Virus record (IMG/VR): IMGVR_UViG_2740892369_000014
DNA: 27,818 nucleotides
Source: a virus
Taxonomy: Duplodnaviria; Heunggongvirae; Uroviricota; Caudoviricetes
Direction: 5' to 3' (one strand)
Shown piece by piece: positions 15,001 to 21,000 of this stretch; positions within the stretch are counted from its first letter, which is position 1, and each line of letters opens with the position of its first letter. A program made the position numbers.

Positions 15001-18000
15001 CGTCGTATCGCCAGGATTCATTGCGCCAGCGCCGGTACTCTTCCATCACGGCATCCACCGTAAGACCAAATGGATTTGCCCCACTCTCCGAAATCAGCGC
15101 AACAAACTCAGCCAGGTCCGGGGGCCACGTTTCACCCGCCCGGCAGCGGTCCATGCACTGACGGCAGACCAGACGGATTTGCTGTTCAGTCATCGCACCA
15201 ATCTGGGCAATCCAGAGCTTCGAAGGTGCGGCCCCGTTCTTCTGAGTCCAGCGGTTCGAATACACCTCCCCCATAAGCTCCCACAGCTTCCAGGCCGTTT
15301 CCGTTGCTGATAAATCCGTTTTCACGTTCCCACTGTTCGCGTGCTGCCCGGATTTCCTGAACTGCCCGTGATGCCGTGCCACCTGATGCTGCATGGCTTA
15401 CCCCCTTGCTGACTGGTTTTACCTGTGCCCTGACGTGCTGCACGTGGCGGGCAAATTTCTGCTCCCACTGAACCTGCGTGAAAACCTTCCCCTCCGCCAT
15501 CCAGTAATCCCGGAATGCGGCAAGCTCAGCAGGTGTAAATTCCGGCTCAGGCAGAGCCATACCCCACACTGCTGCCCGTTGTCGAAAATCCGGCGACGGC
15601 TGCCAGACAGTAGTCATCGAAAATTTCCCGATCGGTTCGCTCAGGCCGTCCAGGTATTCAGGTTCGGCTGTCTGCAACGGCGCACCATGCGACTCACTGG
15701 TCGGAATACTCTCGCGTTCACGCACGTTATGTGTGGGGTTTAATTCTTTTAGATCTGTATCTTTATTAGTTGCTTTTGTGTTTGCGTCATGTTCAAACAC
15801 AACACCAACATTTGTTTGAACACCTGTTAAATCTCTCTCTTGTTTTGTTTGAACATATGCTTCCTTTCTGCTTCTTCTGGCCTGAACAGATGCTTTTCCG
15901 GCGGCTGATTTTTTGGTCAATTTTTCCCTGACTGATGCCAGATCTTCCTCAATCCGAAGATGCACCCATTCATCGCTGTTATCGCAAAAAAACTCCCGCA
16001 AGGATGGTTCCACATCAGCCCATCGCTCGTTAGTCAGACGGGAAATTTTTGCCAGCCTGTTTTTAGGTATTGGTTTCCCTGTTTGCCAGTAATTGAACAT
16101 CAGCAACAAATACGCACCGTGCTCCTCTGCGGACAAATGCATGGTGTCAGCCAGGTAATCAGCTATGTACAGTTGCATGTATGGTAATGCGGCCATAATT
16201 GCCTCATCTTGTGACGAACCATCCTCTGGTGATATTCTGTGATTCCCCAATCAACAGAATCAGCAGGGGTCTGGCATAAATATCAATGCACCACAACAGA
16301 CTCGCCGGATGACCCGCCGTCGCTGAAATACGCTTTCCGGTAAACTGCCTGGACTGCATCATCATGCGCATCAATTGCCGTGCTCAACGCTTCCTGGGCC
16401 GCCAGTAATGCACGGCGCTCAACAGTGTCAAAAATACTGAGGTGATAACGCAGTTCACGCGGAAGAACAGTCAGGATAGCTGGAATTAGTGCCTGAATTT
16501 TTTCAACAGCATCAGGCGTATCCTTTTCAAGCCAGCGAAAAATATTTTGTATGTTCAATCCAATACCCTCTGTCGTAGAGGTGTCATGCATTGGTGGATA
16601 AGTCATTTCAAGCTCAAAATATGCTGTCGCTATATCATCAGCGATTTTTTTGCGCCCTACCCTCGGATAAAGCAGCCACGCATTCATCGCCATGCGGATG
16701 TGCTCATGCTTGATTTTCATGAATCAACTCCCGCCGCTGCTTGTGCGTTAGCCTGATACTCAACAGGTAAACCATCGGTTGGATTAGGGTATTTATCAGG
16801 GCGCAATTCATGCGGAGTTACTCCCCAGTCAAGCGCCTCACATGCTGGTATAACCTCCTCCGCTGGCACTCGTTTTTTAAACCACCCACTTATGGTTTGC
16901 GGTGTTTTACCAAGACGACGCCCTAATTCTGATTGGCTCATTATTGACAGGATTTTCACTTGAGTACTTTTTTGCATGTTTCCCTCCGAACTTTACGATG
17001 ACACCGATAATTACAAATTTAAATTTAAATTTCAACTTCTATTTGTAATGCCACTTATCAATTTTTTCTGTAGGATCGCGGAACTAGTTTACGAGGGGTG
17101 GTGATGATCTTTGTAAAACGCCTTCAGCAGGTGTTGCAGGAATTGAATATAAACCAGTCAGAGCTGGGAAGACGTCTTGGTGTAAAACCCCAATCCGTGC
17201 AAGGTTGGTTGAAAGGCGTGATGCCAAGAATGGATAAACTGGAAAAATTAGCAGAGCTCTCACAACATCCCGTCCATTGGTTCTTTATGGAAGAAGAAAC
17301 TCTCGGCGATAAAATGGCTGTATCCAGTAATGACAACCAACCGCAACTTACAGAACAACAACGAAAAATCATATCGCTTTTAGATGAGTTACCTCAAAGC
17401 GACGCAGAGCAGATCATTCGTGATATGGAGCAAAAACGCGATTTCTATAAACGGAAACTTGAAGAGTTACTGCGGCAGAAAAACAAAACTGCCTGATGCA
17501 TTCCTTTTCTGGAACGAGCATCAGGCAAATGACTAGCAGATTTTATAATCCAACCAGGCTTTCCAGGGGGATACCAAATTGATTATGAAGACGGCGAATC
17601 ATTGGTAACGTAAGGCTTCTGGTACCATTCAACACCTCATAAACCCGATTTTTTTTCCCAATTGCGGGTTCCAAATCTTTCACAGTCAGCCCCTGCTGTT
17701 CCATGCGAAATCTTATAGCTTCAATTGGGGATGGTGGCTCAATGGGATAATGTTTTTTTTCATATTCCTCTATTAGCAAACACATCACCTCAAAAAAATC
17801 CCCCTCAGGCGTGTCAATTTCGGGCTCATTGTCGAACATGGGTTCAACAGCACGCAACGCGGCTTCATAATCTTGCTCTGTACGAATAGGTTTGATGTTC
17901 ATGCTTACTCCAGTTCGATGGTATCAGCATCAATAGCATCGTATTCCTTGTGGTTTCCGATGAATTTAACAAATACCCATCCTCGCTGATACGCAATTGC

Positions 18001-21000
18001 AACAATTAAACGGTAATGATTACCTTTTATGTTGAATACCACGCGCCGGTTTTTCAATATACTGGCCGTTCGGTATTGTGCCTTAATGTCTGCTGGGCTT
18101 TTCCAGTCAGCTTTTGCCGCCTCATCCACCCATGCCCTTAGCGGTTGTTCTGCATCAGGATTCTCCGCCCAAAAATCCCTGAGTGTTTTAACTGAGATAA
18201 TCTTCATAACTGTATAGTAGTCCCATTTTGGGACTGATGCAACAGCCCGCAATTACAAATTTAATAATAAACATGTTGACCAGTTAAATTTTAATTTGTA
18301 AATTGTATCCATAAACCCACCCCGCCCCACAGAACGCAGGGCAATACTTCGAGTTACCCGGCAGTGGTCAGGGGTTAAGTAGCCAGCCTGAGGCGTATGA
18401 ACATGACGGCGGGGATTACGTTTAACTATGCAGCAGGTTTTTTGTTCCGCTACCCCGGCGTTAAGGGGAAACAGAGGATTTCTCAGTGGGCGAAGTCAAA
18501 CATCAGAATGGAAGGCATCCAGGGATCAGCAAAGAAACAGCGATGGCGCTTTATATTGATATCAGCGCCATTGCCGGACAGGTAAGAATTATCAGAGCGG
18601 TAACTAAGCGGTATGCGCCTTTACTTCAGAAAGTCTCTGGTGAGTGCACCGAAGATATTGTCAACGATTTCGTCATCAAACTGCGAGGACTCATCTTCAG
18701 TTACAAGGTGACCACAATTTTTGCAGATGGCTCCCGCGAAACTGTCAGAGCCATGCGGTTTAAAGGATGTGTCAAAGACTTCGCCACCACATTCTGGGCA
18801 AGAAAACTTGATTGTATTCATAACCAATTTCCTCTCGAGTAACAGACCCCTCAGAGGATACCACCTCGCCTGACGTGGTTAAAAGCAGGCAGCGCTAACC
18901 ACAAGGAGCCGACATGCAGAAACGAGAACCCGTCATCATCGCGCCAGACTATACCGATGATGAACTTTATGAGTGGATGCACCAGAAAATTAAGGCAGCG
19001 CAGGACCTGAAATGGGCCAATGAAGCCAGGGCTAAGCAGGCTGAAAATCTGTCCGCTCTGGAGCAGGATATCACCAATCTGGAAAAAGCAGCGGCATTAA
19101 GCATTGCCAGAATGATTACATACCCGCGTTAATAGCTAACCAACGAAGCTAAGGTTGGTAATTAAGGAGTTCTCCACGGGTGAGGTGGAGTGCGTGCGCC
19201 GGACACGGGTGAGCATCCGGCACTGACAGTTTACTGAAAGGATATTTCCCTGAAAAGTCAGACCATAACGCGAAAGCGCACGGCGAGGTAGCTGGTTCAT
19301 AGATAGCCTGTCGTTAAATTTTCGTCGACCGTGCGCTTCCGGTTGTGGCAATCCGCGAAATGGCGCGGCGGTAAGTATGGCGGGGTTATTCCTTCCCCAG
19401 TTGAGGACACCGGGTTGTCAGGTTGACCATACGCTTAAGTGACAACCCCGCTGCAACGCCCTCTGTTATCAATTTTCTGGTGACGTTTGGCGGTATCAGT
19501 TTTACTCCGTGGCTGCTCTGCCGCCCTTTTTAAAGTGAATTTTGTGATGCGGTGAATGCGGCTCAGCGCACGCGGAACAGTTAAAACCAAAAACAGTGTT
19601 ATGGGTGGATTCTCTGTATCCGGCGTTAATTGTTAACTGGTTAACGTCACCTGGAGGCACCAGGCACCGCATCACAAAATTCATTGTTGAGGACGCGATA
19701 ATGGAAACGTTATTACCAAACGTTAATACGTCTGAAGGTTGTTTTGATATTGGTGTTCTGCTCAGTAACCGGGAGTTTACTGAAGATGCCATTAATATGA
19801 GGAAATATGAGCCTTATCTGCTCAATGATAATTCCATACTTTCCCGAATTGCTCTTCTTGAACTTGGTATTTTCGGAGAACGTCAATAACTTCAGCATTT
19901 GCACTGATGATGACGGTTTTTCTTATAACGGGTGAATCACAGAATGTGATTACCGGAATTTATGCCAGTAAAGAATCCTGCCTCCAGGCAAGAGACGAGC
20001 AAAAAATTTCTGGTGAATGCCTCCCGGTAAAAAAAGTATCGCTGTACCTGAATAACGAAACACCGGCTGGATAACCCTCCAGCCATATTAACACCATACC
20101 AACGGATTAAAAATGCCAGCAATGGCAGGGATTCGTTCACCCTGAAATCTGTAATGAGGTAAAACAAAATGAGTAAAGTCTTTATTTGCGCCGCCATTCC
20201 GGACGAACAGGCAATAAAGGAAGAAGGTGCAGTCGCTGTAGCCACTGCCATTGAAGCCGGTGATGAACGTCGCGCCCGCGCAAAATTTCACTGGCAATTC
20301 CTGGAACATTATCCGGCTGCTCAGGACTGCGCTTATAAATTTCTTGTTTGCGAGGATAAACCCGGTATTCCCCGCCCTGCCCTCGATTCCTGGGATGCTG
20401 AATATATGCAGGAAAACCGCTGGGATGAGGAGTCTGCTTCCTTTGTCCCGGTTGAGACTGAATCAGATCCGATAAACGTCACTTTTGACAAGCTGGCCCC
20501 TGAAGTACAGAACGCTGTCATGGTTAAGTTCGACACATGTGAAAACATCACCGTTGATATGGTGATTAGCGCGCAGGAACTGTTGCAGGAAGACATGGCA
20601 ACATTCGACGGACATATCGTTGAAGCGTTGATGAAAATGCCAGAAGTTAACGCCATGTATCCGGAGCTTAAGCTGCATGCCATCGGGTGGGTTAAGCATA
20701 AATGTAAGCCAGGTGCCAAATGGCCCGAAATTCAGGCAGAGATGCGCATCTGGAAAAAACGTCGCGAAGGTGAACGCAAGGAAACCGGAAAATACACGTC
20801 TGTTGTTGATCTCGCCCGCGCCAGAGCCAATCAACAGCACACTGAAAATTCAACAGGAAAAATCAGCCCGGTCATTGCTGCCATTCATCGCGAATACAAG
20901 CAGACATGGAAAACACTGGATGACGAACTGGCCTACGCTCTCTGGCCTGGTGATGTGGATGCCGGAAACATTGACGGCAGCATCCATCGCTGGGCAAAAA

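Follow-up and report, generated by a model that had tools for sequence, protein, structure and literature searches.

The cI-N interval of lambdoid phages is a recognised mosaic hotspot that harbours rexAB and bstA (PMC8585504). HigBAC, carried by a lambdoid prophage of Escherichia coli NT1F31, defends against lambda and Bas25 (Mets et al., bioRxiv 10.1101/2024.02.24.581848), and paaA2-parE2 of CP-933P/Sp12 is addictive and was proposed to guard the immunity region from replacement, with the promoter PL933P lying beyond it (Jurenas et al. 2021, PMC8630535). A HigB-like component is also used by PD-lambda-2, which in addition needs a peptidase domain fused to its HigA-like component and a third, P4-antitoxin-like gene, component B being the toxic part (Vassallo et al. 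2022, PMC9519451). Here we describe a higB-higA (higBA) pair in the IMG/VR virus record IMGVR_UViG_2740892369_000014, a stretch of 27,818 nucleotides that is a lambdoid prophage and is called the window below. We consider it quite probable that this pair is an autonomous toxin-antitoxin (TA) cargo in a variable slot between the immunity repressor gene and the early-left promoter (PL), a judgement that covers the anatomy and the cargo reading and neither of the benefits discussed below. Lambdoid prophages with TA or defence genes in their repressor-to-PL slot have been described before, and the genes of this locus are named by RefSeq; what sets the locus apart is that it has just two genes, in inverted orientation, that their autonomous promoter abuts the early-left operators (OL), and that the alternative slot contents form a clean natural series. 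No paper on this locus in O26/O103 was found in the literature. The pair and its control elements are the following.

17905-18207, minus strand: higB, a toxin of 100 amino acids, by family a RelE-superfamily mRNA interferase (Pfam HigB_toxin, E = 4.8e-33, 113.7 bits against a cut-off of 27)
17543-17902, minus strand: higA, an antitoxin of 119 amino acids with a C-terminal HTH_3 domain at residues 63-115 (RefSeq coding sequence, homology to HigA, selection)
18214-18242, minus strand: candidate higBA sigma-70 promoter with operator, from family conservation upstream of higB, with −35 TTGCAT at 18242-18237, a 17-bp spacer at 18236-18220 and −10 TACTAT at 18219-18214
17478-17527, minus strand: predicted higBA intrinsic terminator, with a 10-bp stem 17490-17499/17518-17527, an inner stem and a U-run at 17478-17489 (fold, inverted repeat)

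By homology and gene order, the pair is a true two-gene type II TA of the K-12 HigBA family. The HigB_toxin-domain protein comes first and is followed by an adjacent Xre-type helix-turn-helix (HTH) antitoxin homologous to HigA, the higB stop lying at 17905 and the higA ATG at 17902 with a gap of 2 nt. Over its whole length HigB aligned with the E. coli K-12 HigB of known structure (5YCL/5IFG/6KML; E = 3e-7) and HigA, over residues 6-112, with the solved K-12 HigA (5YCL/5IFG; E = 3e-9), and the family-invariant HigB residues of a 12-member subfamily alignment are all present in the window protein. NCBIfam gave no model match for HigA, HigB or the Cro analogue described below. Both reading frames are intact in all variants examined, and the ratio of nonsynonymous to synonymous substitution rates (dN/dS) between prophage variants amounts to 0.03-0.04 in higA and 0.04-0.08 in higB, with dS values reaching 0.6 and beyond, so both genes are kept by strong purifying selection. 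As read from the sequence, higA has a Shine-Dalgarno motif, GGAG at 17911-17908, five bases before its ATG and within the end of higB. A longer, TTG-started higB reading frame reaching 18252 was considered and rejected, since the start in 164 homologues is the ATG at 18207, 13-14 nt after the palindrome described next. From its family, HigB would be a ribosome-dependent mRNA endonuclease neutralised by HigA.

The upstream region of higB carries the clearest signature of autonomy. The palindrome AGTCCCATTTTGGGACT at 18219-18235, with arms GTCCC-N5-GGGAC, is unique in the window against 0.03 occurrences expected; most of it is held by the 17-bp spacer, and its last base overlaps the −10, after which the minus strand reads ACAGTT and then the ATG at 18207. 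Our survey of this region took in 164 homologous loci from genome contigs, viral contigs and the contexts of exact protein look-ups, which reduce to 136 distinct upstream sequences, the genome matches of HigB being the best 80 of at least 592. A TCCC-N5-GGGA palindrome ending 13-14 nt before the ATG was found in 104 of the 136, and the family consensus reads TTGC-nn-(n)AG-TCCC-N5-GGGA-C-TAnnnT, then 6-7 nt, then ATG, with the T, A and T of the −10 conserved at 95-100% and the TTG of the −35 at 73-88%. Close variants retain the TTG, the TAnnAT and the GTCCC/GGGAC arms, and the adjacent bases vary. Since this design is conserved regardless of neighbouring genes, from Enterobacterales to Pseudomonas and Betaproteobacteria, the element belongs to higBA and not to the phage. 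A palindrome set in the promoter spacer at a fixed distance is in keeping with HigBA autoregulation through predicted HigA binding. The higB mRNA is probably leaderless, because the ATG stands 6 nt after the −10 and no Shine-Dalgarno sequence precedes it. The shared design (operator in the 17-bp spacer, ATG 6-7 nt after the −10) was compared in loci L021-L028, L031, L032, L036 and L129-L136 of our collection against window positions 18219-18266; a subgroup of HigBA loci (L018-L020, L129-L135) has instead a 30-nt leader with a Shine-Dalgarno sequence. If the family is a reliable guide, a HigA dimer would bind the palindrome and repress the higBA promoter, weak leaderless translation of HigB together with coupled and efficient translation of HigA would give antitoxin excess, and free HigB would cleave ribosome-bound mRNA; position and precedent suggest that the pair may be expressed in the lysogen and serve the prophage. 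The original prediction had placed higB-higA between the repressor gene and the dicB-operon promoter, convergent with the repressor, and had given the pair its own promoter and palindrome; the coordinates and the RefSeq coding sequences agree with the former, and the latter coincides with the family-conserved upstream element.

At the other end of the pair, fold and alignment indicate that the higBA terminator is merged with the hairpin ending the repressor gene. The fold energy of the minus-strand RNA, −32 kcal/mol (z = −3.64), was reached by 0 of 200 shuffles, the structure overlaps the repressor stop codon, TGA at 17494-17496, which is contained in the first arm, and the first arm and loop are homologous to a hairpin after the repressor gene of Sodalis. 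Repressor gene and higBA are convergent, with 46 bp between their stop codons. Both the higBA promoter and the terminator, with its 18-nt loop, fell outside the rules of our generic promoter/terminator scan.

The slot is bounded by the following elements of the immunity region, for which no strand is given where the site is a repeat.

17104-17496, plus strand: immunity repressor of 130 amino acids, with an N-terminal HTH and a C-terminal helical region (Pfam HTH_3, E = 6.6e-9; RefSeq coding sequence)
16717-16977, minus strand: Cro analogue, a YdaS-type HTH protein of 86 amino acids, the left part of the immunity cassette (Pfam YdaS_toxin, E = 1.7e-8, and HTH_3)
17011-17048: operator-like inverted pair TTACAAAT ... 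ATTTGTAA between the cro and repressor genes (repeats; predicted binding)
18250-18266: operator-like site C, CAATTACAAATTTAATA, 86% identical over 21 nt to 17009-17029
18276-18305, plus strand: candidate early-left promoter (Pb/PL analogue), TTGACC at 18276-18281, 17 bp, TAAATT at 18299-18304 (comparative evidence)
18290-18305: operator-like site D, an inverted copy over the early-left −10 (repeats)
18314-18471, plus strand: conserved leader of the dicB operon (match start in E. coli prophages, alignment with the L183 locus)

The repressor had been described as dicA-like, which is right as to a distant relation (BLASTP E = 2e-7), the two-part DicA architecture and the LPxSD...M motif that it has in common with DicA, but goes too far as to orthology, given 22% identity and an NCBIfam DicA score (49.9 bits) that stays below the cut-off of 101. 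The Cro analogue did not align with DicC, so that the locus has neither a DicA orthologue nor DicC. Pfam found no S24 peptidase domain in the repressor, and among solved structures only a generic HTH match was obtained (2KPJ, E = 5e-4). The Cro analogue is 72-100% identical across all higBA-bearing relatives. Kinship of the repressor with the PaaR2-type repressor of L183, a paaA2-parE2 locus of E. coli FDAARGOS_944, was not significant (E = 12), and a Salmonella segment with repressor and PaaA2 genes, used as query, only found the window repressor type again; DicA, the L183 repressor and the window repressor have a C-terminal LPxxD/E...M motif in common despite negligible overall similarity.

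The 8-mer TTACAAAT occurs six times in the 27.8-kb window against 1.27 expected, a count that 0 of 100 shuffles reached, and four of the copies form two inverted pairs, at 17011/17041 between the Cro analogue and repressor genes and at 18253/18294. The first pair overlaps promoter-like sites on both strands (plus, ATGACA-16-TAAATT, 16998-17025; minus, TTGAAA-17-AATTAT, 17035-17007), and the second flanks the −35 and covers the −10 of the promoter at 18276-18304. The early-left promoter would be controlled by the repressor through predicted binding at these TTACAAAT sites, a paired-operator layout like that of lambda OR/OL and, in our own reading, of the Qin DicA operators; it is also like the footprinted OR and predicted OL operators of CP-933P (PMC8630535). 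A simple promoter scan returned six such sites in 2.4 kb of this AT-rich stretch, the early-left one among them, with no enrichment over shuffles, and because 4.5 were expected, the early-left hexamers by themselves are not beyond chance. What makes this promoter credible is its conservation down to 74% repressor identity, its position at a mosaic joint and the flanking repeats. Its core, TTGACYAGTTAAATTTTAATTTGTARATT, is conserved in all higBA-bearing relatives, Salmonella included; the homologous Sodalis counterpart is TTGACT-17-TAGAGT, and Qin has TTGACC-17-TAATCT at the same relative place in our own reading. The higBA and early-left promoters stand back to back with 33 bp between their −35 boxes, and site C lies between these boxes, centred some 50 bp before the higB ATG and some 54 bp before the expected Pb start. 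The original prediction gave the hexamers, spacing and position of this promoter exactly, although "near-consensus" overstates a match at 9 of 12 consensus positions, and it rightly set operator-like sites within 50 bp of the higBA palindrome, since site C starts 15 bp from the end of AGTCCCATTTTGGGACT.

Between the repressor gene and the early-left promoter, the contents of the slot differ among related immunities, as listed here with the identity of the repressor.

E. coli, repressor 89%: higBA
Salmonella, repressor 74%: higBA
S. diarizonae, repressor 71%: a 424-amino-acid PLD-domain gene
S. Javiana, repressor 72%: a PaaA2-like gene and a TM2-domain gene
Serratia, repressor 58%: two small open reading frames (ORFs)
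Sodalis glossinidius, repressor 71%: no gene

The PLD-domain protein (L009/L010, 4506-5780) has weak PADLOC matches to DpdK and DrmC, the PaaA2-like antitoxin gene (L011/L012, 4454-5056) stands beside the TM2-domain gene with no obvious ParE partner, and the two small ORFs (L016, 4414-5038) have no family match. Sodalis serves as the empty slot: it aligns with the window at the repressor end and hairpin (17467-17517) and again from site C into the leader (18249-18412; 73%, E = 2e-20), with about 157 unrelated bases between the aligned flanks against 731 in the window. From these alignment bounds the cargo is approximately 17518-18248, beginning in the terminator and ending 6 bp upstream of the higBA −35. 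In a Salmonella variant (L007, ~4500-4535), the spacer between repressor gene and higA measures 148 bp against 46 bp and contains four tandem copies of GGTCTTC, and the cargo junction on that side is not conserved there. Between Salmonella and the window, identity is 72% for the Cro analogue, 75% for the repressor, 88% for HigA and 80% for HigB; by these values higBA has co-diverged with its cassette and is an old, stably linked part of the immunity type, with no recent insertion. The earlier image of a module "wedged" into the region is therefore apt for cargo, as the empty Sodalis slot and the other contents indicate, and not for a recent event, considering this co-divergence and the one cassette seen in 148 of 148 E. 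coli genomes. The comparison with Qin that had been suggested for setting the insertion boundaries proved uninformative, because the Qin immunity region shows no relationship in its DNA sequence and the alignment is limited to some 30 bp preceding ydfA; repressor relatives and Sodalis were used instead. Elsewhere, HigB proteins of 82-91% identity occur between metabolic genes on a Klebsiella chromosome and on conjugative plasmids of Serratia, within the leading region; the same level is found on E. coli and Enterobacter plasmids and on other viral contigs, a distribution that marks higBA as a mobile cassette of two genes. The neighbours of HigB homologues in other viral contigs are mixed (tail, Bro/antirepressor-like and Arc-like genes), and no second independent repressor-adjacent case was found among them except the H-19B type.

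The slot is itself part of a larger exchangeable unit. The repressor segment 16978-17540 and the higBA-promoter segment 17497-18310 were each found in 148 of 5426 complete E. coli genomes, all matches being full-length, and repressor gene and higBA are adjacent in every locus examined. Sequence to the right of 18314 matches 3438 genomes, thousands of prophages beginning at window positions 18314-18318, and in L183 a cassette with another repressor and paaA2-parE2 joins the same leader at the same base. Together, this joint at 18313/18314, about 9 bp after the early-left −10, and the 148 against 3438 genomes argue for a recombining unit composed of the Cro analogue, OR, the repressor, the TA pair and the OL/promoter. 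The outer flanks vary between carriers: YdaT is 30-100% identical, ydfA/ydfB or an ECs_2282-family gene comes after the leader, and dicB or kilR/ydaE stands on the far side. The L183 locus (1184-4736) has a ydfA-ydfB-ydfC-dicB backbone with YdaT, YdaS, a 166-amino-acid HTH repressor, a PaaA2/RelB-like antitoxin and a ParE toxin. In NZ_CM177009.1 (E. coli VL7S7) two places match the repressor segment, so that two prophages of this immunity may coexist in one cell, which would be unexpected for homoimmune phages.

As to what the pair does for the prophage, analogy with the described systems makes it somewhat more likely than not that higBA is an addiction module penalising the loss or replacement of the immunity cassette, and leaves the chances about even that abortive-infection defence against other phages is a real phenotype; the two are not exclusive. 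Several points weigh against an autonomous, functional cargo. In the window, the candidate higBA promoter agrees with the consensus at no more than 7 of 12 positions and escaped the generic scan. By PADLOC and gene content, the locus is devoid of the third, phage-sensing component that HigBAC and PD-lambda-2 need, and the absence of these sensor parts weakens the case for a defence role, which may nonetheless exist. Plain two-gene HigBA pairs are mostly linked to plasmid stabilisation. In addition, promoter, HigA binding, toxicity and defence are all predictions here, anatomy and function resting on the sequence of the locus. A TA pair in the slot may also be phenotypically silent, as the activity of CP-933P ParE2 was not detected in single cells (PMC8630535).

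Of the alternatives to the autonomous cargo as set out above, the one that survives best is that the pair gives no phage defence at all and acts purely in addiction and against recombination, loss or exchange of the cassette leading to killing or arrest by the longer-lived HigB, as proposed for CP-933P paaA2-parE2. It accounts for the presence of repressor and higBA segments in exactly the same number of genomes, their adjacency everywhere examined and their co-divergence into Salmonella, for the close HigB homologues on conjugative plasmids, the classical stabilisation setting, and for the lack of a sensor component at the window locus, and the RAE2 locus is known to stabilise a plasmid (PMC8630535). 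However, linkage within 1.3 kb is expected of any neighbours and needs no addiction, and in relatives the slot holds defence-like genes, namely the PLD-domain protein with its weak DrmC/DpdK matches and HigBAC in the H-19B-type Stx phages; we therefore consider this purely addictive role possible at best and somewhat unlikely.

A second alternative departs from autonomy and makes higBA a cross-regulated module, in which the repressor bound at site C would co-control the higBA promoter, in place of the second HigA operator of the nearest non-prophage relatives, so that the balance of HigB to HigA would shift upon repressor loss (induction) or dilution (superinfection). In enterobacterial relatives outside immunity regions (77-91% identity in HigB) a pair of palindromes is found, one beginning some 26 nt and the other some 55 nt before the ATG, about 30 bp apart; two further relatives, from Bartonella (L029/L030, 81%), have one. 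All of the 30-odd immunity-region copies have only the proximal one, and site C lies at the place of the distal one; moreover, the homology of the empty Sodalis slot starts exactly at site C. In the Salmonella variant, as read from the sequences, 16 nt separate the core of site C from the higBA −35, just as in the window, even though no base of this interval is the same, and the spacing between that core and the Pb −35 is changed by 2 nt. PaaR2, for its part, controls its TA pair in the same slot. Against these observations, the wider family, including many non-phage loci, has mostly a single palindrome, so one operator suffices and a "loss" is not proven; a general rule of two palindromes turning into one was rejected, since most distant family members have one and the direction of change is uncertain. 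The spacing evidence comes from one divergent lineage, and an E. coli variant (L112) has a 1-nt deletion there. A centre near −50 is no classic position for repression and activation would be pure conjecture; the role of a distal Pb operator, analogous to OL2/OL3, already accounts for site C in full. We regard co-control by the repressor, with the shifts that would follow, as doubtful, and still a little more so the narrower proposal that, on capture, the distal HigA operator was replaced by the distal early-left operator of the repressor and the promoter came to be read jointly by HigA and repressor. What speaks for cross-talk is purely positional, and in general we hold it improbable. Were it true, the expression of HigB/HigA would shift whenever the repressor was lost, be it on induction, on cassette replacement or after a superinfecting homoimmune phage had titrated it, and a ribosome-dependent RNase would be coupled to the lysogeny switch through a shared divergent control region and not through co-transcription.

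Finally, that higBA is a passenger, silent or in decay, the remnant of a TA pair without present function in a defective prophage, its palindrome and promoter being historical, could be argued from the integrase frameshifted in O26:H11 11368, from the ParE2 of the analogous slot with its undetectable activity and from a repressor with no cleavage domain, for which reason the element may be cryptic, but it is made very improbable by the intact ORFs of the variants examined, by dN/dS of 0.03-0.08 over such synonymous divergence, by promoter-critical bases held while their neighbours drift and by the complete set of invariant HigB residues.

The autonomous cargo, which we prefer, stands in a prophage region whose 3.2 kb tested (16700-19900) are 100% identical in enterohaemorrhagic E. 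coli (EHEC) O26:H11 11368, O103:H2 12009, O45:H2, O111 and relatives. The integrase of the matching prophage is frameshifted in O26:H11 11368. In local RefSeq order, a YdaT-family gene and a "transcriptional regulator" (16717-16977) come first on the minus strand, followed by an HTH protein on the plus strand (17104-17496) and, on the minus strand, a second HTH protein (17543-17902) and a "type II toxin-antitoxin system HigB family toxin" (17905-18207); to the right lie an ECs_2282-family zinc-binding gene (minus strand) and then, on the plus strand, ydfC, dicB, a DUF1482 gene, an exonuclease and an integrase. Besides HigB_toxin, Pfam recognised DicB and YdaS-type and YdaT-type proteins in the window. 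The operon faced by the early-left promoter comprises these features.

18914-19889, plus strand: ydfC, DicF small RNA (sRNA) and dicB operon (RefSeq, Rfam, Pfam)
18914-19132, plus strand: ydfC (RefSeq annotation)
19475-19526, plus strand: DicF sRNA (Rfam, 75 bits)
19701-19889, plus strand: dicB (Pfam DicB, E = 6.4e-37, 125.5 bits)

A dicB operon with the DicF sRNA and DicB downstream of the repressor gene is thus of the Qin type. Conservation of its non-coding leader (18314-18471) extends over more than 3000 E. coli genomes and, with 73% identity, to Sodalis; as a structured RNA the leader had no Rfam match at E ≤ 1, and its fold did not surpass that of shuffled sequences (z = +0.9). A hairpin and U6 at its end (~18385-18451) could be an attenuator. 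The ECs_2282-family gene (18621-18821, minus strand), a CxxC zinc ribbon (NCBIfam, 1e-15), lies antisense within the leader transcript region of the dicB operon and occupies the place held by ydfA and ydfB in other prophages. A promoter-like site for it was seen at 18838-18811, from which transcription would collide head-on with that of the early-left promoter. Elsewhere in the window (coordinates 4543-4715, 5488-5736, 2469-4406, 5765-6478 and 26948-27685) were noted an STnc100 sRNA (105 bits), three tRNA genes, an AraC-family regulator gene and a DUF1737-SASA-DUF6645 esterase gene of NanS-p type, and past the integrase a Mom-family gene and a 453-amino-acid ORF with no Pfam match, the position of which is that of a shorter EspF-repeat effector gene in O26:H11 11368.

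The locus adds one more documented occupant to the repressor-to-PL hotspot, in prophages of major non-O157 EHEC serogroups. It also provides a natural series of contents on one dicB-type backbone or repressor family (higBA, paaA2-parE2, a PLD-domain gene, nothing), which asks what the slot selects for, and, being autonomous and inverted, higBA would be a useful control in asking whether accessory genes of the slot need the promoter of the repressor. The promoter design of the family, in which the operator fills the spacer, the toxin is predicted to be leaderless and the antitoxin to be coupled through its Shine-Dalgarno sequence, offers a compact and testable model for antitoxin excess. Current understanding is unchanged by these findings, and their practical value lies in correct annotation and in a defined construct for defence or stability assays.

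Compared with the systems introduced at the outset, the window proteins are closest in PADLOC to PD-lambda-2, where HigB corresponds end to end to PD-Lambda-2_A (1.1e-40) and HigA to the first 119 of the 402 positions of PD-Lambda-2_B (1.7e-42). The HigA of 119 amino acids has no C-terminal ImmA/IrrE peptidase domain, and higA is followed by the terminator and the convergent repressor gene, with no third gene in between. HigBAC resembles the window in having a HigB-family toxin and a HigA-family antitoxin in the repressor-to-PL variable locus, but it differs by its SecB-like chaperone, the long C-terminal extension of its HigA (218 amino acids) and its co-directional orientation with cI. The window has none of these, neither a SecB-like chaperone gene nor a chaperone-addiction extension of HigA; its HigB is 42% identical to that of the HigBAC type (H-19B), and its operon points the opposite way, with its own promoter. 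Since HigA covers only that part of component B and a third gene is absent, the locus is neither PD-lambda-2 nor HigBAC. In phage H-19B itself (L182, AF034975.3, 3501-4842) and in Stx2a_WGPS9 (L181, 3501-4842), three cI-N genes co-directional with cI encode a HigB-family toxin of 95 amino acids, a HigA-like protein of 218 amino acids and a SecB-like protein (PADLOC PD-T4-9_C, 3.2e-11), that is, the HigBAC type; the H-19B record, like those of many Stx1a phages, gives no annotation for these genes.

The paaR2-paaA2-parE2 arrangement shares with the window a type II TA pair set between a repressor that is CI-like and non-cleavable and a promoter of PL type, with YdaS/YdaT as Cro/CII analogues, and its relatives (L183) have the dicB-operon backbone and mosaic joint of the window. 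In CP-933P, however, the pair shares a transcript with the repressor and, as PaaA2 lacks a DNA-binding domain, relies on that repressor, whereas the window antitoxin has its own HTH and predicted operator in a convergent operon. The lambda rexAB and BTP1 bstA genes occupy the same hotspot and are expressed in the lysogen, but their transcription, together with that of cI, starts at the cI promoters, and they do not belong to the HigBA-family TA pairs. Co-transcription with the repressor, common to rexAB, bstA, paaA2-parE2 and HigBAC, does not extend to the window, where higBA lies convergently on the opposite strand. Qin dicA-dicC/dicB of E. coli K-12 differs in the gene-free interval of 61 bp that leads from the dicA stop to the −35, in its operators, in a repressor of 22% identity and in an unrelated DicC; as in the window, the repressor gene is followed by a promoter for ydfC-dicF-dicB, operators are repeated at the divergent promoters and at the dicB-operon promoter, and the repressor has the same two-part architecture. 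As for the pair itself, E. coli K-12 HigB-HigA (YgjN-YgjM; 5IFG, 5YCL, 6KML) differs in its identity of about 30%, its chromosomal and not phage-borne location and a HigA of 138 against 119 amino acids, but it has the same toxin-first operon and PF09907 fold family, and in both the K-12 and the window HigA an N-terminal helical part is joined to a C-terminal HTH.

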